A stretch of 64,000 bases of DNA from Escherichia phage LH2, in the sequence record OQ378934.1; one strand, written 5' to 3'. A model generated the notes under the pieces. It searched no databases. It was not told where the DNA came from and saw only the letters and a program-made list of their open reading frames with translations. The position numbers were made by a program, and so were the translations under genes. Positions 17,942 to 59,097 of this stretch are shown piece by piece. Position 1 is the first letter of the stretch. Each line of letters begins with the position of its first letter.

Positions 17942-18559
17942 TTATGCCTTACTAAATTTGCCTTTAGAGTCTCTTTTCATGAGACGACCTTTAATAAATC
18001 CGTCGGGAATAATACCGTCTGGTTGTATTAATTTATTTATTGCTCCATTATTGACCCAAAAAGTTCCTGTGGTAGTCGGTTTGACTTTACATCCTTTTCT
18101 GGACTTTCTATTAAGATGAACCATCCCTTTTACAAATCCTTCTGGAACAAGTTCTCCAGGTTTAATAAAAATATTTTTAGTTCCATTAGTGTAACAAGTT
18201 GTACCTAATACCGTGCCCGGTGAGTTTTCAAATCTCTTAGCGGAAGATTCTTTCATCTTTGCTATAACCTCTGCAGTCATAACAATTCCACCAATTCCAC
18301 CAGGTTTCATATTATAATAATTTTTGCTTTTTATTAGTTCAGGAGTTATAATTTCTTCTTCATACATGTACGCTTCTTCGGAAGTTTTAAACTCTTTTAG
18401 TATTGTTCTAGAGAAATTCTTTTCACCATATTTCTTTATAGCCTGCTGAATTGCCTTACCGGAACCAAGGTAGCCATCATTCAAGTCATCAGTAGAGTGT
18501 TTTCCTATATACTTTTTACCATTTATTAGATTTGTCGTTTCATATACAAAGTGATACAT
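17942..18559 (-). CDS. segE: GIY-YIG homing endonuclease (SegE-like by position)
   Basis: N-terminal YETTNLINGKKYIGKH ... GYLGSG ... NMKPGGIGG; sits between uvsW and inh, which I recall as the T4 segE site. Confidence 0.7.
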   Translation of the reverse strand: MYHFVYETTNLINGKKYIGKHSTDDLNDGYLGSGKAIQQAIKKYGEKNFSRTILKEFKTSEEAYMYEEEIITPELIKSKNYYNMKPGGIGGIVMTAEVIAKMKESSAKRFENSPGTVLGTTCYTNGTKNIFIKPGELVPEGFVKGMVHLNRKSRKGCKVKPTTTGTFWVNNGAINKLIQPDGIIPDGFIKGRLMKRDSKGKFSKA

Positions 18560-46700: not shown

Positions 46701-46860
46701 ATTGATCGCTCGGGAGATTTTCCCCCGAGTCTGTTTTTGTCTCAGCGATTTCTACAAAATAGTAGAAATTAGCACCAACGTCATCCCAGCGTACTTGCAC
46801 CTGATTTGCGGATAACTTGGAAATTCTGAGACTAGTGACTGAAGGTGCTTTTACTGCCAT
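43762..46860 (-). CDS. 7: baseplate wedge protein gp7
   Basis: 1032 aa as in T4. Confidence 0.85.
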   Translation of the reverse strand: MAVKAPSVTSLRISKLSANQVQVRWDDVGANFYYFVEIAETKTDSGENLPSDQYRWINLGYTANNSFFFDDADPLTSYIIRVATAVQDFEQSDWVYTEEFETFATNAYTFQNMIEMQLANKFIQEKFTLNNSDYVNFNNDTIMAALMNESFQFSPSYVDVSSISNFIIGENEYHEIQGSIQQVCKDINRVYLMESEGILYLFERYQPVVKVSNDKGQTWKAVKLFNDRVGYPLSKTVYYQSANTTYVLGYDKVFYGRKSTDVRWSADDVRFSSQDITFAKLGDQLHLGFDVEIFATYATLPANVYRIAEAITCTDDYIYVVARDKVRYIKTSNAPIDSDPLSPTYSERLFEPDTMTITGNPKAVCYKMDSVGDKVFALIIGEVETLNANPRTSKIIDSADKGIYVLNHDEKTWKRVFGNTEEERRRIQPGYANMSTDGKLVSLSSSNFKFLSDNVVNDPETAAKYQLIGAVKYEFPREWLADKHYHMMAFIADEKSDWETFTPQPMKYYAEPFFNWSKKSNTRCWINNSDRVVVVYADLKYTKVIENIPETSPDRLVHEYWDDGDCTIVMPNVKFTGFKKYASGMLFYKASGEIISYYDFNYRVRDTVEIIWKPTEVFLKAFLQNQEHETPWSPEEERGLADPDLRPLIGTMMPDSYLLQDSNFEAFCEAYIQYLSDGYGTQYNNLRNLIRNKYPREEHAWEYLWSEIYKRNIYLNADKRDAVARFFESRSYDFYSTKGIEASYKFLFKVLYNEEVEIEIESGAGTEYDIIVQSDSLTEDLVGQTIYTATGRCNVTYIERSYSNGKLQWTVTIHNLLGRLIAGQEVKAERLPGFEGEIIRGVKGKDLLQNNIDYINRSRSYYVMKIKSNLPSSRWKSDVIRFVHPVGFGFIAITLLTMFINVGLTLKHTETIINKYKNYKWDSGLPTEYADRVAKLTPTGEIEHDSVTGEAIYEPGPMAGVKYPLPDDYNAENNNSIFQGQLPSERRKLMSPLFDASGTTFAQFRDLVNKRLKDNIGNPRDPENPTQVKIDE

Positions 46861-48839
46861 TGTGATATAGGCTCCAAATCGATAGTTAAGTATTGTGGAC
46901 GTAAGTCATTTTCAAATACAATCAGTGAACCATCGCGAGTAAAGATAACATCATCGGTTGGGTCAGAATATAATTCAATAGTCTGAACTTCAAATTTTTC
47001 AGATGTTAAATTAATTTTAGCGATATTCCAATAAATCACATCAGCTGGATAATTTATTTCACCGATAACATAGTATTTGTCGCGTCCATCAGAATTTGCT
47101 AATTTGTTAAAATCATTGCCTGTATACGGCTGAATGTTTTCATTTTCTGTAACATCGCCAGAAGCAAATGGACCAATAATAACTTTACCAATTCCTTTAG
47201 AATCTCGGTCTGTTGATACTATACGAACGTCATATAATACATCTTCTTCTAAACCAGTATCAGGATTTACAACCTTTCGTCCAGAATTAAATGAAAACGT
47301 ATTAGATTCCATAGAACGATCTTTTATTTGATTATTGTATTTAATACCTGCTTCAGGCGTTTTATAGAAGTTTTGTACTTCACGAACAATTTGAATTGTC
47401 GCTGATGAACCAATGATAGAATGATCTGCATCATCTACATATGTCAACATCTTAGACTTAGCAAAAGACGAGTTAAAAATTTCTACATCTTCGGTATAAT
47501 AACGATCAATTTTATCAATTATTTGACCTTCGAGCCACTGTTCGGATTCTTGCAGTTTATTTAAAGCATATGTGACTTTTAAATTAGTCTTAATAAAAAG
47601 ATAATTAGGAGAAATAATTGATGGCGTAATAGGAGCTAAATTATAGTCTTTGAGATAATTTTTAATATCTTCACGTTGCACAGTAGTTAAATACAATCCT
47701 GATTTAGGTTTAGCAGCAATAAATGCATACCCAGGTTTAGTAGAATCAGTGAAAGTCTGAACAGCTTGAATAATAGAACCAAATCTCTCTGAAACAAATG
47801 TATCGTAGTCAGTCGCAGTTACGCAGCGTTGCTGGGTTTCGCGTTTAATAGTACCCAATTCGCGAATACGCTCAATATCTTCTGGATCACCGCCGCCATC
47901 TGCTCCGACAAAATCTGGGTCGTCGTTTGGATTTTCATTAATATTGATGACAGTTATATTTGTTAATGTATCTGCATATGAAAATCCGACTGCGCCATTC
48001 GCATCAGCGCCATTAGTACTGATGTATTCAATAACAATCGTAGAGTTCTGAGTAGGTTTAAGACCTCCGATATAATTAGCGGTCAAAGCTCCTTCAGAAG
48101 CATTAACAGAAATTTCACCTTCACCAAAATAGAATTCAGTGTTTCCATCAATAGTTTCACGCATATAGTAAATCGTTGATGTTGAACCAGCATGAACCAT
48201 TGACTTTCTCGTCCAGTTAATCCATTCCGCTCCATCAACATATAATTTAACCTGGTTTCTATCAATATTTTTATCATAAATGATAATAGGTGTTAATTTA
48301 TCATAAATGATTTCAGTTCTTACTATACGTCCCTGGGCCAATTTTAAACGTGGAAAATATTGGTTATTTTTATCACGAATAGCAATAACGTCTTCGGTAG
48401 AAACGAAGTTATATGGATTAACAGAAGTATCTTTTGCATATGCTAAAAAGCGAGTTCCGCGAGGAATAGTAATGTAATTCCTATTCAATGCGTCGGTGCA
48501 TGTTAACATAATTTCGGTCTGCGCAGCGGATTTTGAAGTAGGTAAATATCCGTTATCTTGTGCAGCTTGAACAACTGAACTTCGTAAGTTAGCAGTACGC
48601 ATAAAGCTTTCATACACAGCAGCATTACCAAACTGCTGAATGTACAACGTATTATAAGCCAAAAGGTCACACAGAACGTTTAATCTTGAGCCTTCAAAAT
48701 CATAATCCAAAAATTCATTTTGGCCATTAAGCCATTCAATGAGGTTTTGTTTTATTTCAGCAAACGTACCCCCGACGAATATCTCGGGAATAGCATTTGC
48801 TGTTCTTGTTAATTGATAATTTACAGGGGTATTTGCCAT
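46851..48839 (-). CDS. 6: baseplate wedge protein gp6
   Basis: 662 aa (T4 about 660). Confidence 0.85.
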   Translation of the reverse strand: MANTPVNYQLTRTANAIPEIFVGGTFAEIKQNLIEWLNGQNEFLDYDFEGSRLNVLCDLLAYNTLYIQQFGNAAVYESFMRTANLRSSVVQAAQDNGYLPTSKSAAQTEIMLTCTDALNRNYITIPRGTRFLAYAKDTSVNPYNFVSTEDVIAIRDKNNQYFPRLKLAQGRIVRTEIIYDKLTPIIIYDKNIDRNQVKLYVDGAEWINWTRKSMVHAGSTSTIYYMRETIDGNTEFYFGEGEISVNASEGALTANYIGGLKPTQNSTIVIEYISTNGADANGAVGFSYADTLTNITVININENPNDDPDFVGADGGGDPEDIERIRELGTIKRETQQRCVTATDYDTFVSERFGSIIQAVQTFTDSTKPGYAFIAAKPKSGLYLTTVQREDIKNYLKDYNLAPITPSIISPNYLFIKTNLKVTYALNKLQESEQWLEGQIIDKIDRYYTEDVEIFNSSFAKSKMLTYVDDADHSIIGSSATIQIVREVQNFYKTPEAGIKYNNQIKDRSMESNTFSFNSGRKVVNPDTGLEEDVLYDVRIVSTDRDSKGIGKVIIGPFASGDVTENENIQPYTGNDFNKLANSDGRDKYYVIGEINYPADVIYWNIAKINLTSEKFEVQTIELYSDPTDDVIFTRDGSLIVFENDLRPQYLTIDLEPISQWQ

Positions 48840-48847
48840 TTTAAATC

Positions 48848-49141
48848 CTATTTAATGAATACTTTAGATGATGCCTGAGCCACAGTATCACCGCATGATA
48901 TTGGATCAGCCATTTGAACAGCTTTCTTTCCAGTGACATATACCTTAGAAGTTCTAGGTTGTGTCACTCCGCCATGTGTTTCATACGGCTTTTTAATTTC
49001 TGTATGTTCTGTAATTGGATCACCTGCTACGAGAACAGCAATTCCTCCGGTGAATACTTTACTTTGTGTGGCATTCACAACTGTTGGAGGCCATGCTTCA
49101 TGGCCAGCAGTAACACACTTATCGTAACTTAATCCTGACAT
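48848..49141 (-). CDS. 5.4: PAAR-repeat spike-tip protein gp5.4
   Basis: 97 aa; PAAR-like Gly/Val repeats. Confidence 0.8.
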
Positions 49142-49719
49142 TTATAATACCCCGCTTTAACTCGCCCCTTTAAGGTACTATAATTTATATTAAGAGCTTT
49201 AGCTGCGATTTTAATACTTTTATATAAAACGCCGTTGATAATAATAGATTTAGCATTAGGGGCTATTTTGCCATACATTGGGTTATTGGCGCCGCACATC
49301 TTCGGAGTTTTACCTCTAGGCCCTCTAGGCCCTCTTTTTCTAGACGATTTAATGCTAATTTTCAATCTAGTTTCACGCGAATGAGATTTACCGTAAAATC
49401 CATTTTTAACACCCGCTGTGCTATGTTTTGGGAAGCCACCGATACCACCTAGTTTCATATTATAAGTTTTCTCAGATTTAACAAATTCCTCTGTGACTAT
49501 TTCTGCCTCTGCGTCATACATAGCTTTTTCAGATTCAAAGAATTTTATAATATGCTTATAAAAATTATCTATGCCATATTTTTTAATGGCATTTTTAATG
49601 GCAACGCCAGAACCCATATACCCATCATCCAAATTTGAAGTTTTATGGACACCTACATAAATTTTTCCCGTTGTTTTATTAGTTATTGAATACAAATAAA
49701 AATATTTATGGCCTCTCAT
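49129..49719 (-). CDS. GIY-YIG homing endonuclease, 196 aa
   Basis: [18 protein letters not shown] ... DDGYMGSG ... NMKLGGIGG; paralog of the segB-like and segE-like genes; NUMOD-like motif [13 protein letters not shown]. Confidence 0.75.
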
Positions 49720-50224
49720 ACACGTAGCTTCTCAATTTATTAGCCCAACGACTCCAATTTCCAACTATAGTTTTTGTGTAATTTTTAACAAGAGTTTTTC
49801 TTATTGGAGCTGGAGGATTCGTCGGTTCAGTAGTATCAGAAGATGACCTAGAATTACTGCCAGAACCTCCAGATTCGCTTTGTTCTTGGTAGTCATATAT
49901 TAATGTTACTTCGTAAGTGAATGTCTTCTGGAGGTTTTGAGGAGCTTTCCATAGATATAACTGAGTATTAGAATCAGTTGGAAGGTCTTCCCATGAAGCA
50001 GCGGTTTTAAATTCATTATCTAAACGATATTTCAACGCATCATTTCCAAATCCAAATACAGATTCATACGTTCCATATAAACGATTTTCTTCTACTAAAA
50101 CCCCAGGAGTTTCTTCGTAACTAGTTATATTTATAGATACTAACGTTTCACCTGTTTCTAATTGAGCGGTAAAGGTGACGTCGATAGAAGAACCTTCCAT
50201 GGATTCTCCTAAATCAGCGCTCAT
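49706..50224 (-). CDS. hypothetical protein, 172 aa from ATG
   Basis: ORF-track start at 50242 is TTG; acidic N-terminus and Ser-rich linker; sits between the two endonuclease genes. Confidence 0.45.
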   Translation of the reverse strand: MSADLGESMEGSSIDVTFTAQLETGETLVSINITSYEETPGVLVEENRLYGTYESVFGFGNDALKYRLDNEFKTAASWEDLPTDSNTQLYLWKAPQNLQKTFTYEVTLIYDYQEQSESGGSGSNSRSSSDTTEPTNPPAPIRKTLVKNYTKTIVGNWSRWANKLRSYVYERP

Positions 50225-50234
50225 TGGAAGTATA

Positions 50235-51101
50235 TTAGCCAATTGTTGAATTCTCTAATGATGTAAATTTATAATCACATTTTTTCAACGCTTTTAAAAT
50301 TGCGTTATAACTTACATCCGGGAGGTCGTGTTCAATTGCTTTTTCTCTAAACCATTTGTATTTCTGTGGATGTGGTTTTCCCAAATCCTCCCAAAGTTTT
50401 TTGACTTTTTCTATACTAATCCAAGGTTCAACTGATCTTAGTTTTTTATTTCTAGCATCTAATCTCGATTTTCTTATCAAAGGATCATTCCATGATTGTT
50501 TCGTTCCTTCTATTTTTCCTGGATGATTGATTAATTTGTTTCTATATTCATCGGATTTCCATAAAGATTTAACGGTATTAGAAATACGAATTTTTAATGT
50601 TGGATCATTTTCAAAAGCAGTTTTCATCGCATTACTCATTTTCTTTCTATATTCTGGCGATGCGCATCTTTCTTTGTTTATTTTAGATATTTTCTCTGAA
50701 AATTCTTTAGTTGACGTTGATTTAGCTAATGCCTTCAATTGAGCTTTCCTATATTCAGGATTAGACCACATTCTCTTCAAATCTTCGGATGAAAAACCAT
50801 CACCGCCGGATTTTATATTGGTACATAGAATATCAGATGATTTATATTTCGAAATCCAATATCTTTCTCTTGAATTGAGGATTTCATAAGTAGAAACAAA
50901 TTCAATTATTTCAAAATCTATTTTATAACCAGGTTTATTACGTATCTTTTTAATATAATCACCGGAACCTCTATACTTATCATTTTCTAAATCAAAATAT
51001 CTAGATTCATGTTTACCAATATAAACCCGTACTAATCCTTTCGGATTAGTAACGGTTGTTTTATATATGTATCTAAATTGAACAGTGTTAGATTTTTTCA
51101 T
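50235..51101 (-). CDS. GIY-YIG-type homing endonuclease with three NUMOD-like repeats, 288 aa
   Basis: RYIYKTT...VRVYIGKH...YRGSG... then repeats SNPEYRKAQ / ASPEYRKKM / KSDEYRNKL. Confidence 0.6.
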   Translation of the reverse strand: MKKSNTVQFRYIYKTTVTNPKGLVRVYIGKHESRYFDLENDKYRGSGDYIKKIRNKPGYKIDFEIIEFVSTYEILNSRERYWISKYKSSDILCTNIKSGGDGFSSEDLKRMWSNPEYRKAQLKALAKSTSTKEFSEKISKINKERCASPEYRKKMSNAMKTAFENDPTLKIRISNTVKSLWKSDEYRNKLINHPGKIEGTKQSWNDPLIRKSRLDARNKKLRSVEPWISIEKVKKLWEDLGKPHPQKYKWFREKAIEHDLPDVSYNAILKALKKCDYKFTSLENSTIG

Positions 51102-51119
51102 AATTCACCTCTGAATTAT

Positions 51120-52850
51120 TTATAAACCTACGTCTATACGGCTACCATCAATTGTGTATTGACCAGATGAAATAGAACTCATAGATGCCATTTTTTCTGT
51201 CCAATCACCACCAACGTCCCAATCAACTGTCCCAGCAACTTTCCAAGAAAGATTTCCATTTACTGTGTTAGTTTGATTTCCTTCAACTAAAGTGGTAGCA
51301 TCTCCTTTAACTGTAATGTCAGCATTACCTTCAACTACAATAGTAACATTACCTTTTACTAGGATAGTTCCATTACCTTCAACTGTCTTGGTTTCATCGC
51401 CACGCACAAATATTGTGTTGCTTCCATCTATTTGGTGAAGACGATTATCCATGTTGTAATAAATTTCTGATCCACCGACGTTAGTCTTTTTATCGCCGGC
51501 TACCAAAAAATTACCATCAGCATTTGTTATATCATACAAATTATCAACAGTTTTTCTTGTTCTTCTTCCTGATGGTGATACTTCCTCATACGTTCCAGTC
51601 GGATGAACTAATCTGTATCGCTCTTGCCCAGGGGTATCATCAAATTCCTGAATATGACCGCTTTCAGTTTCCATTGTGTGAACATACGGATACTCACCTT
51701 TATATGAAGAAACAGGTTCTTTGAATAAAATTCTCGAATCATTCGGAATAGGAGGGTCAGCCGGGTCAGAAGACTTTGCTACAGTAGCAGCCATTGCAGA
51801 CAAAGACCTAGCTGGTGTTTTCACTTCAATACCGTATGATTCCAAATTGCCTGTAAGAATAATCATGGTAACACGGGATGCACGGCCTTTTGTTTGTTGA
51901 TACCACAATGAATCACGACCGGCTTTATATGCTTTTTCCCAATCTCCGGCTAACATAGCAGTTAACATTGTGTTAAATTTAGCTACACCGCCAACACCCA
52001 TCTGAAATGCCATATTTTCTAATGCCATTTGACGAGAACGATTAACTGCTTTCCAAACTGGGCCAACTTTAGAATGTGATTTAATGTCACGTTGCATATC
52101 AGCTAAATCACGTTCAAATAAAGTTACCGCTTCTTCCATTGTAATAGAACCTGGATTTCCGGTAATTTCACGACCAACTTGTTTTGATAAAACTTTATTA
52201 ATTTGGGCCATATCACGAACTGGCTGCTTCATGATAAGATGACCAATACCAATTGTCGGATATCCTTCTGTATCCCAATAAACTTTTAGTCTTAATCCTT
52301 CATCACGGCGAAGCATTTCAGCCATTGACATATTTGGATTATCATCAGTTGGAATTTCTGATAATGGTCTATCATCAGGATTTATCGCAGTGTCTAGATT
52401 GCTATCTTGGATAATATTAGAAGACGAATCATATCCTACTTCTCCGCCTTGGTTTAATACGTTAGTATCATTTCCTAGACGTCTAGGATACTGCCCAGTT
52501 GGGTCAGAAAATCCTTCAAGTCTATTAGGTTTTTCGCGAACTATCCCACCATACGTGCCAAGGACAATTCCGTTAGTTTTCCATTTGTCTAAAAAATGAC
52601 CATAAACTCTAGTTCCTTCTACCGGACCAGTAACGGAGCCTCCAATTCCAGACATTGCTGCAGAAGTTATAGGTTGAATAACTGACATCCATGGTAATTT
52701 ATCAGTTGGAATACCCATTACGTCGCCTTGTGCTCTTTGAGGTGGATGCAGACCAACTACACGAACACGAACACGACCTAATTTTAATGGGTCCATTCTA
52801 TCTTCAACAACACCAACAAACCAATTAAGATTATTACTTATCATTTCCAT
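51120..52850 (-). CDS. 5: baseplate hub and tail lysozyme gp5
   Basis: 576 aa; central lysozyme domain (DEGLRLKVYWDTEGYPTIGIGHL) and C-terminal beta-helix repeats. Confidence 0.9.
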   Translation of the reverse strand: MEMISNNLNWFVGVVEDRMDPLKLGRVRVRVVGLHPPQRAQGDVMGIPTDKLPWMSVIQPITSAAMSGIGGSVTGPVEGTRVYGHFLDKWKTNGIVLGTYGGIVREKPNRLEGFSDPTGQYPRRLGNDTNVLNQGGEVGYDSSSNIIQDSNLDTAINPDDRPLSEIPTDDNPNMSMAEMLRRDEGLRLKVYWDTEGYPTIGIGHLIMKQPVRDMAQINKVLSKQVGREITGNPGSITMEEAVTLFERDLADMQRDIKSHSKVGPVWKAVNRSRQMALENMAFQMGVGGVAKFNTMLTAMLAGDWEKAYKAGRDSLWYQQTKGRASRVTMIILTGNLESYGIEVKTPARSLSAMAATVAKSSDPADPPIPNDSRILFKEPVSSYKGEYPYVHTMETESGHIQEFDDTPGQERYRLVHPTGTYEEVSPSGRRTRKTVDNLYDITNADGNFLVAGDKKTNVGGSEIYYNMDNRLHQIDGSNTIFVRGDETKTVEGNGTILVKGNVTIVVEGNADITVKGDATTLVEGNQTNTVNGNLSWKVAGTVDWDVGGDWTEKMASMSSISSGQYTIDGSRIDVGL

Positions 52851-58431: not shown

Positions 58432-59097
58432 ATGTTCCATTACATTTATAAAATAACAAATAAAATTAATAATAAAATCTATATAGGCGCTCATTCTACC
58501 GAAAATTTAGATGATGGATATATGGGTTCTGGTAAATTATTAAAAAGAGCCCAAGACAAGTATGGTATAGAAAATTTTTCTAAAGAAATATTAGAGTATT
58601 TTGATGATAAAGAATCTATGCTTGAGTCAGAAAAGAATATTGTGACTGAAGAGTTTTTAAAGCGCCCTGATGTTTATAATTTGAAATTAGGTGGTGAAGG
58701 TGGTTGGGACCATTTAAACACTAAAGAATATTTGGATAAAAAGAAAGAAGCTTCCTTAAAAGGGGCTGCTGCTTTTAAAACCAGATTTGAGAACGACCCA
58801 GACCTTAAAGAAAAATATCGTAAAATGGGTTCAGAAAGGTTTAAACAGCTTTGGGATAATCCTAAGTATAGAGAGAAATTTTTAAATATTAAATCTTTCT
58901 TGGGTAAGACCCATACTCCTGAAACTATTAATAAAATGAAAGAATCTCACGCCAGAAATAAACACCAACAGGGCGAAAAGAATTCCCAATTTGGTATGAT
59001 GTGGATTCATTCATTAGATGAAAAAGTTTCTAAACGTATTAAGAAAACTGACCCAATTCCAGAAGGATGGTTTAAAGGTCGAAAAATGAAATTTTAA
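58432..59097 (+). CDS. segB: GIY-YIG homing endonuclease inside the tRNA cluster (SegB-like)
   Basis: 221 aa; YIYKITNKINNKIYIGAHS ... DDGYMGSG ... NLKLGGEGG; sits between tRNA-Ile and tRNA-Arg as segB does in T4. Confidence 0.8.
   Translation: MFHYIYKITNKINNKIYIGAHSTENLDDGYMGSGKLLKRAQDKYGIENFSKEILEYFDDKESMLESEKNIVTEEFLKRPDVYNLKLGGEGGWDHLNTKEYLDKKKEASLKGAAAFKTRFENDPDLKEKYRKMGSERFKQLWDNPKYREKFLNIKSFLGKTHTPETINKMKESHARNKHQQGEKNSQFGMMWIHSLDEKVSKRIKKTDPIPEGWFKGRKMKF

Follow-up and report, generated by a model that had tools for sequence, protein, structure and literature searches.

Several free-standing homing endonuclease genes of T-even phages have been described next to conserved essential genes. 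In the intronless homing systems SegF/gene 56, SegG/gene 32 and MobE/nrdB, the carrier and empty genomes differ by clustered, mostly synonymous changes, and flanking markers are co-inherited with the endonuclease gene (PMC2988022). Another enzyme, SegC, appears among the active free-standing GIY-YIG endonucleases tabulated in the review by Edgell, Gibb and Belfort, with an insertion site between 5.1 and 5.3 (PMC2988022, Table 1); the review describes it as a cassette lacking a promoter and reports its preferential inheritance in T4 x T2 crosses (PMC2988022). The window analyzed here is a stretch of 64,000 nucleotides (nt) from Escherichia phage LH2 (OQ378934.1) and represents a Tequatrovirus (T4-like) genome. 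Within its baseplate operon, segC and a second gene, encoding a protein of 288 amino acids (aa), lie between gene 5 and gene 5.4. We consider, with a probability of about 0.8, that the two are free-standing homing endonuclease genes of the GIY-YIG type, independent of each other and occupying different sites on the two sides of the resident gene 5.1 of a T4-like phage.

All genes of the interval are read on the minus strand. In the direction of transcription, gene 5 (51,120–52,850), encoding the 576-aa baseplate hub and tail lysozyme of the cell-puncturing spike, was recognized as an open reading frame (ORF) annotated as gp5 in T4T and its relatives. It is followed by the 288-aa gene (50,235–51,101), gene 5.1 (49,706–50,200), segC (49,129–49,719, 196 aa), gene 5.4 (48,848–49,141) and gene 6 (46,851–48,839), the last encoding a baseplate wedge protein. 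The product of gene 5.4 is the PAAR spike-tip protein (PF05488, 39 bits; annotated as 5.4 in relatives). The three ORFs between genes 5 and 5.4 had been placed by a first-pass annotation made from the sequence alone, and all of them were recovered at those positions, on the minus strand. The region from 48,800 to 51,200 matched four GenBank phages (CJY920, SP21535, T4_ev151 and Manna) over its full length with 97.5–99.0% identity, and partial matches were found in 522 phage records.

Judged from its homologs, family profile and predicted fold, the 288-aa protein is a divergent Seg-type GIY-YIG endonuclease. In BLASTP, its entire catalytic domain and some of its repeats aligned with the SegB variant encoded in the same window, at 30% identity (E value 7e-13). 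Moreover, it was matched by PHROG 314, labeled 'homing endonuclease' (1e-25), and by the PADLOC HEase model (6e-7), and a search of 5.8 billion proteins returned 13 relatives at E<=1e-3. A family alignment of 16 members, comprising relatives of the 288-aa protein and three Seg paralogs, contained the invariant residues Y13, Y27, G29, Y43, G45, S46, G47, K56, E79, N95, G99 and G100. The GIY and YIG motifs of the 288-aa protein read F-R-Y-I-Y (Y11 and Y13) and V-Y-I-G (Y27 and G29). Among the aligned members, 11 of 16 matched SegE_GIY-YIG (PF19835) and 7 of 16 matched GIY-YIG in Pfam. A homolog with 35% identity (P0008) passed PF01541 and contained four NUMOD3 units at 100 bits; the SegB paralog likewise passed PF01541. 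The family profile also matched the catalytic domain of I-TevI (1LN0, E value 2.8e-7), with both tyrosines, Glu75 and Asn90 aligned, and E79 and N95 of the 288-aa protein fall in the profile columns of I-TevI E75 and N90. A phmmer search of the single 288-aa sequence against the PDB returned only noise. In the AlphaFold model, the N-terminal domain adopted a beta-beta-alpha-beta-alpha order with a predicted local distance difference test score (pLDDT) of ~80–87.

Three parts were distinguished in the 288-aa protein: a catalytic domain (residues ~9–104), five NUMOD3-like helical repeats (105–225) and a possible helix-turn-helix or winged-helix region (~228–275). A motif of the type [NSD][PD]x[YLIT][RKL] was counted five times, at residues 114, 148, 165, 183 and 206, and the five repeats aligned with the bona fide NUMOD3 units of P0008. 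The first-pass annotation had described a GIY-YIG protein with three NUMOD-like repeats; the family assignment was borne out by the paralog comparison, the family profile and the fold, whereas the number of repeats had to be raised to five. The core GIY-YIG residues are intact; mutated catalytic residues had been named there as grounds for refutation.

The 288-aa protein resembles the Seg enzymes (SegB and SegE, and also SegA, SegD, SegF and SegG) in a catalytic domain of the form YIY...VYIGKH...Y-GSG...E...N-GG, and the repeat WxNPEYR/ENDP is common to SegB and the 288-aa protein. As with other seg genes, the gene is free-standing, lies at an intergenic or gene-end position and has the same orientation as its neighbors. 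Compared with the Seg enzymes, the protein is longer and has five repeats, its GIY-YIG hairpin contains 5 additional residues, and the DDGY motif is missing. Its gene differs from that of I-TevI, the GIY-YIG enzyme encoded in the td intron of T4, in that it is not located in an intron. In GenBank, the gene was mostly labeled 'hypothetical' and otherwise 'Seg-like', without a gene name, and T6 is among the carriers; no mention of an endonuclease between genes 5 and 5.1 was found in the literature searched. The ratio of nonsynonymous to synonymous substitution rates (dN/dS) was 0.054 against the copy in vB_SsoM_113 and 0.09 against the 82%-identical copy in F2, indicating strong purifying selection. 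The copy in F2 and ZQ3 was mosaic at the DNA level relative to 50,235–51,101 of the window, with ~70% identity over codons 1–151 and 91–97% over codons 152–288. This pattern suggests recombination inside the endonuclease gene of F2 and ZQ3, by which the catalytic half was swapped and the DNA-binding half kept.

The junction of the insert with gene 5 was resolved by comparison with T4T, T2, RB9, ime09, fPS-90, pSe_SNUABM_01 and KRT47. The empty T4/T2-type allele reads ...ACAATTGATGG ATCGAGGATTGAC ATTGGCTAA TATACTTCC..., and in the window the 13 nt ATCGAGGATTGAC are exchanged for 901 nt (51,144–50,244, minus strand). The insert opens with a recoded gene 5 end, GGT AGC CGT ATA GAC GTA GGT TTA TAA (51,120–51,144), where T4 has GGA TCG AGG ATT GAC ATT GGC TAA; the first G of the recoded end (51,145) belongs to the shared GATGG, and the insert proper starts from 51,144. 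Because the insert brings a synonymously recoded copy of the gp5 tail, gp5 stays intact. Its tail is GSRIDVGL in carriers and GSRIDIG in T4, so that the protein is one residue longer (576 aa versus 575 aa). The recoded end is followed by ATAATTCAGAGGTGAATT and then by the 288-aa ORF, which ends on ATT GGC TAA (50,235–50,243, minus strand), the two codons and the stop with which gene 5 originally ended. The recoded end was present in all examined genomes carrying the 288-aa gene or its deletion scar (see below) and in 0 of 7 empty genomes examined, and the diverged copy in F2 has the same junction layout as that in the window. Next to the insertion point there is almost no sequence variation, with 1/56, 0/43 and 3/100 variable sites in 14 genomes, compared with 11–16/100 elsewhere.

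The position beside an essential gene and the clustered, mostly synonymous differences between carrier and empty genomes are shared with the SegF, SegG and MobE systems (PMC2988022), in which flanking markers are likewise co-inherited. Unlike these systems, the locus has its recoded patch, of 8 codons at the gene 5 end, physically within the insert, and the endonuclease ORF terminates on the original stop of the host gene. In contrast to I-TevI, the host frame is saved by a recoded duplicate of the last codons rather than by splicing. The junction thus shows a way for a free-standing endonuclease gene to settle at the end of an essential structural gene and leave that gene undamaged, by means of recoded last codons and a borrowed stop. 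In carriers of the 288-aa gene and in phages with the scar, the mobile element has changed the spike protein at its very C terminus (...IDVGL versus ...IDIG). We take this terminus to be the end of the spike that docks the PAAR protein gp5.4.

The recoded end also created TATAAATA (51,117–51,124, minus strand), a match to the T4 late-promoter consensus that the empty junction lacks. The match spans the gp5 stop and lies 15 nt upstream of the ATG of the 288-aa gene, followed by the Shine-Dalgarno sequence GAGGTGA, and might serve as a promoter of this gene. A second exact match of the interval is located inside gene 5.1 (50,128–50,135, minus strand) and also occurs in T4. Over the whole window, 22 late-promoter matches of this type were found versus 9.9 expected. 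Manna and T4_ev151 show a 1-nt insertion in the 18-nt spacer between the gp5 stop and the 288-aa ATG (AATTCCAGAGG versus AATTCAGAGG), which, on this sequence difference, marks them as one insert lineage distinct from that of the window and T6.

The distribution of the two genes was patchy. The 288-aa gene was found in 32 records, segC in 36 and both in 4, and the large majority of ~490 records had neither; among the records with gene 5.1, ~6–7% carry each endonuclease gene. The empty gp5/5.1 junction was found with at least 99% identity in 479 records, and subtraction of ~35–40 half-length matches from carriers leaves ~440 uninterrupted junctions. Both sites were empty in six sampled genomes (T2, RB9, ime09, fPS-90, pSe_SNUABM_01 and KRT47). 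For both genes, the junctions are identical in all carriers and the empty sites are conserved, indicating presence/absence polymorphism at fixed sites. In carriers, the empty-site sequence is replaced or recoded by the insert with the 288-aa gene, or split by segC. The comparison across T4-like genomes that the first-pass annotation had called for thus found variation, with each gene occurring alone elsewhere, and its proposal of sequential invasion agrees with our data, as sequential or independent acquisition is well supported by the distribution and the mosaic flanks.

A third allele, regarded as a scar, was found in four records (ESh36, 215Ecol030PP, LF73P3 and LF73P1). In it, the recoded gene 5 end is joined to the final 34 nt of the 288-aa gene, precisely as an 851-nt deletion between two 8-nt direct repeats, TTATAAAT, would produce. 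The upstream copy is located at 51,118–51,125 and the downstream copy at 50,267–50,274, within the 3' end of the 288-aa gene (both on the minus strand). The scar records a loss of the endonuclease gene in nature and presumably leaves a resistant site.

The 196-aa gene is the ortholog of T4 segC, which encodes a characterized free-standing GIY-YIG homing endonuclease. It is 97.9% identical to segC of T4 and T4T at the nucleotide level and 95% at the amino acid level, with the same insertion site and junctions. The protein exceeded the Pfam cutoffs for SegE_GIY-YIG (27.0 bits, cutoff 25) and NUMOD3 (32.4 bits, cutoff 20.4), supporting the earlier GIY-YIG assignment, and the I-TevI DNA-binding domain scored just under the threshold. 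The insert comprises 564 nt between 6-nt direct repeats ATAAAT (49,704–49,709 and 49,140–49,145), and together with the flanking repeats it spans 49,140–49,709 on the minus strand. Genomes without segC contain one ATAAAT, in ...GAGAGGCC ATAAAT GTCAGG..., and the 5.1 stop there abuts the 5.4 ATG. The start codon of segC lies within the resident 5.1 sequence and its stop within gene 5.4, with overlaps of 14 nt with the 5.1 end and 13 nt with the gp5.4 start; the latter overlap had already been seen in the first pass. The insertion point, these overlaps and the domain set (GIY-YIG, NUMOD3 and an I-TevI-type DNA-binding domain) are common to T4 and the window. The window copy differs from T4 segC in starting at the second of the two ATGs of T4T, in nine amino acid substitutions and in being joined to a T2/T6-type 5.1 3' end, from which the T4-type end differs at 8 of the last 20 nt. 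Literature searches on the SegC cleavage site ('ets1') and on where phage T4_ev151 came from yielded no useful information.

In the T4 reference (AF158101/NC_000866), segC and a separate gene 5.3 are annotated, and the alignment is one nucleotide shorter there. As the locus is one uninterrupted ORF in T4T, RB55, RB59 and the window, a frameshift or an artifact of sequencing in the T4 reference seems to account for gene '5.3'.

The ORF between the two endonuclease genes is T4 gene 5.1, with 95% amino acid identity to T4 gp5.1. Three candidate starts (50,242, 50,224 and 50,200, with the end at 49,706) give products of 178, 172 and 164 aa. Because AGGAG precedes the ATG at 50,200 and no Shine-Dalgarno sequence precedes the 172-aa start at 50,224, the 164-aa product, which matches the T4 annotation, is most likely. 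The first-pass description as a 172-aa ORF of unknown function remains apt regarding function, since gp5.1 belongs to PHROG 1168, annotated as unknown function, and was revised regarding length and identity. No match to gp5.1 was found in the PDB, Pfam, NCBIfam or PADLOC, with no large database search made.

On its distribution, gene 5.1 is a resident conserved gene and part of neither mobile element. It was found in 489–492 phage records, compared with 32 and 36 for the endonuclease genes, and lies directly between genes 5 and 5.4 in the six genomes in which both sites are empty, as well as in one Mosigvirus. The first-pass annotation had suggested that the sandwiched ORF may be cargo, and in this case the two endonuclease genes with 5.1 would form one composite element. 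Only the position between the two genes speaks for such an element; 5.1 is present regardless of either endonuclease, and the endonuclease genes occur apart, each with its own insertion junctions. We therefore rejected the composite element, which is highly improbable: 5.1 does not follow the mobile genes that flank it here.

The flanks of both inserts were mosaic. Alleles were scored at sites where T4T and the T6-type phage vB_SsoM_113 differ. Gene 5 of the window had 56 T6-type versus 19 T4-type alleles, and gene 5.1 had 24 versus 5 in the window and CJY920 and 18 versus 11 in SP21535. In contrast, gene 5.4 and the 5' half of gene 6 in the window had 47 T4-type versus 3 T6-type alleles; these T4-type alleles are linked to segC, and the switch lies at most a few nucleotides from the segC boundary. 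CJY920 and SP21535 carry a segC identical to that of the window, with a mixed gene 6 5' half (28 versus 21–22). Manna and T4_ev151 have T4-type genes 5 and 5.1, and the 288-aa gene is bordered there, toward gene 5, by a T6-type tract of ~340 base pairs. Short foreign tracts are centered on each gene in otherwise different backgrounds, which is indirect evidence of endonuclease-dependent preferential inheritance. Additionally, in T4, Manna and T4_ev151 the last 20 nt of 5.1 (49,720–49,740), directly upstream of segC, depart at 8 positions from all other genomes examined, whereas segC in the window, CJY920 and SP21535 stands beside the common T2/T6-type 5.1 end. The T4-type changes at this end may be target-site immunity polymorphisms without a counterpart in the window lineage. 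Because the flanking alleles differ between the window, CJY920 and SP21535 on the one hand and Manna and T4_ev151 on the other, the data indicate that double occupancy arose on at least two backgrounds, one of which would have gained segC and the other the 288-aa gene.

The gene identities, junctions, distribution, purifying selection and mosaic flanks are shown by the sequence comparisons. Beyond these, we infer from the established knowledge of T-even free-standing endonucleases (PMC2988022) a mechanism in which the 288-aa protein cleaves a target of its own, its late promoter is used and the transfers are initiated by the endonucleases. During co-infection with an endonuclease-free relative, each enzyme would cut the DNA of the relative in or near the conserved empty site, and the split or recoded site of the carrier would protect its own genome. 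The cut genome would then be repaired by recombination, receiving the endonuclease gene along with flanking markers over a stretch of variable length. TATAAATA would drive late expression of the 288-aa gene. The gene could later be lost by a microhomology deletion, leaving a resistant scar. For the window, double occupancy could be explained if segC, with T4-type gp5.4 and gp6 markers, entered a T6-type genome that already contained the 288-aa gene. An endonuclease role in the observed transfers is probable. The chances seem about evenly balanced that the 288-aa gene is, more specifically, an active, unnamed homing endonuclease gene targeting the invariant 3' tip of gene 5. It would then form a self-contained cassette made up of the recoded 8-codon gp5 'immunity patch', the late promoter and an ORF reusing the host stop, and the scars in the four phages would represent the loss phase of a natural cycle of gain, immunity and loss.

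Several observations weigh against these interpretations. At the level of the protein, no Pfam GIY-YIG or NUMOD3 (PF07460) match to the single 288-aa sequence was obtained at E<=0.1, and the protein stayed under the curated thresholds of PF01541, PF19835 and NCBIfam (TIGR01453 reached 19.7 bits, with a cutoff of 56). Foldseek with the whole model returned nothing significant, the AlphaFold model was modest overall (mean pLDDT 68.7, predicted template modeling score 0.35), and no biochemical or genetic test of the protein was found in the literature searched. Relative to the Seg-type profile, I-TevI R27 is part of an insertion and cannot be aligned with an equivalent residue, and the family has no invariant arginine; the equivalent is likewise missing in SegB, SegC and SegE, all reported active. 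For SegC, the 9 amino acid differences from T4 result from 12 nucleotide changes, giving a dN/dS of ~0.45 on small counts, compatible with relaxed constraint. Such scores, the substitutions in SegC and the splitting of segC into two genes in the T4 reference record would all fit one or both genes being inactive relics of past invasions. We regard this as unlikely, as neither ORF is truncated, the GIY/YIG tyrosines, Glu and Asn are invariant in both, and the 288-aa gene is under strong purifying selection and intact in 32 of 32 records with a full-length copy. It is similarly improbable that the 288-aa gene has been domesticated or given a new role, as a nuclease or DNA-binding protein that acts, for example, in regulation or inter-phage exclusion or supplies a late promoter for 5.1–5.4, and that it is kept for the benefit of the phage and no longer homes. 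Because the gene is absent from ~93% of close relatives, which are functional without it, is cleanly deleted in four phages and is found, together with a short linked tract, in genomes that are T4-type elsewhere, its pattern is typical of a selfish element.

A more serious alternative, though still a minority possibility in our judgment, accepts both genes as endonuclease genes and attributes double occupancy and patchiness to ordinary homologous recombination between co-infecting T-even phages. These phages recombine freely, and homologous recombination could give the same mosaics without an endonuclease cut. Consistent with this, the allele tracks of gp5, 5.1 and gp6 were finely mosaic in every genome compared, and the 4 double carriers among ~490 records are near the ~2 expected under independent assortment. 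Moreover, no flank polymorphism that could indicate a cleavage site or a co-conversion tract was fixed between carriers and non-carriers in the 14 genomes, so that the argument for co-conversion rests on a handful of genomes. Against recombination alone stand the switch from T6-type to T4-type alleles at the segC boundary in the window and the short T6-type tract around the 288-aa gene in Manna and T4_ev151. In addition, activity and preferential inheritance have been reported for SegC (PMC2988022), and strong purifying selection on a gene present in ~6% of genomes is the pattern of a self-propagating element. We thus favor two independently acquired homing endonuclease genes.

Double occupancy is a rare combination of two known insertion sites and no new kind of system. 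The biology is ordinary and largely known: SegC had already been described, gene 5.1 is resident, and the 288-aa gene is an uncharacterized member of a known family. A reading as a defense system was rejected, as PADLOC gave only generic 'HEase' models. The current understanding of homing endonucleases is unchanged by these results, and their value lies in the annotation and natural history of the locus. The 196-aa gene is now assigned to SegC, the 'unknown ORF' to gene 5.1 and the 288-aa 'hypothetical' protein to a Seg-type GIY-YIG endonuclease missed by curated models. The gene 5 end and the 5.1/5.4 junction are two tolerated and recurrent insertion points in the T4 baseplate operon, a point of use in phage genomics and engineering. 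Gain, immunity and loss are documented on a small scale in nature by the scar allele together with the two backgrounds that carry both genes.

Two further Seg paralogs are encoded in the window. segE (17,942–18,559) adjoins uvsW, is 97.9% identical to the T4 gene at the nucleotide level and has a Pfam match; the first-pass annotation had its position right, to which the minus strand has to be added. The segB variant (58,432–59,097, plus strand) lies within a transfer RNA (tRNA) cluster, with tRNA genes on both sides, and shows 84.8% nucleotide identity to T4 segB and a Pfam GIY-YIG score of 28.4 bits. The N-terminal block that the first pass had noticed in the 196-aa protein was confirmed over ~91–96 aa, with 52% amino acid identity to SegE and 53% to SegB. 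The accompanying idea that one family had seeded at least three loci gained no support as a recent event: the catalytic domains of segC, segE and segB are 59–64% identical at the nucleotide level, comparisons with the 288-aa gene gave 47–52%, and the longest exact run common to the paralogs in the nucleotide alignment is 14 nt. Recent transfer among the four paralogs was rejected on these values, by which SegC, SegE and SegB are old paralogs of the long-known Seg family, with no recent burst of copying. Many phages matched only the first 287 nt of the segB-type gene, its catalytic half, with ~90% identity, which may be taken as a further sign of domain-level mosaicism among Seg genes.

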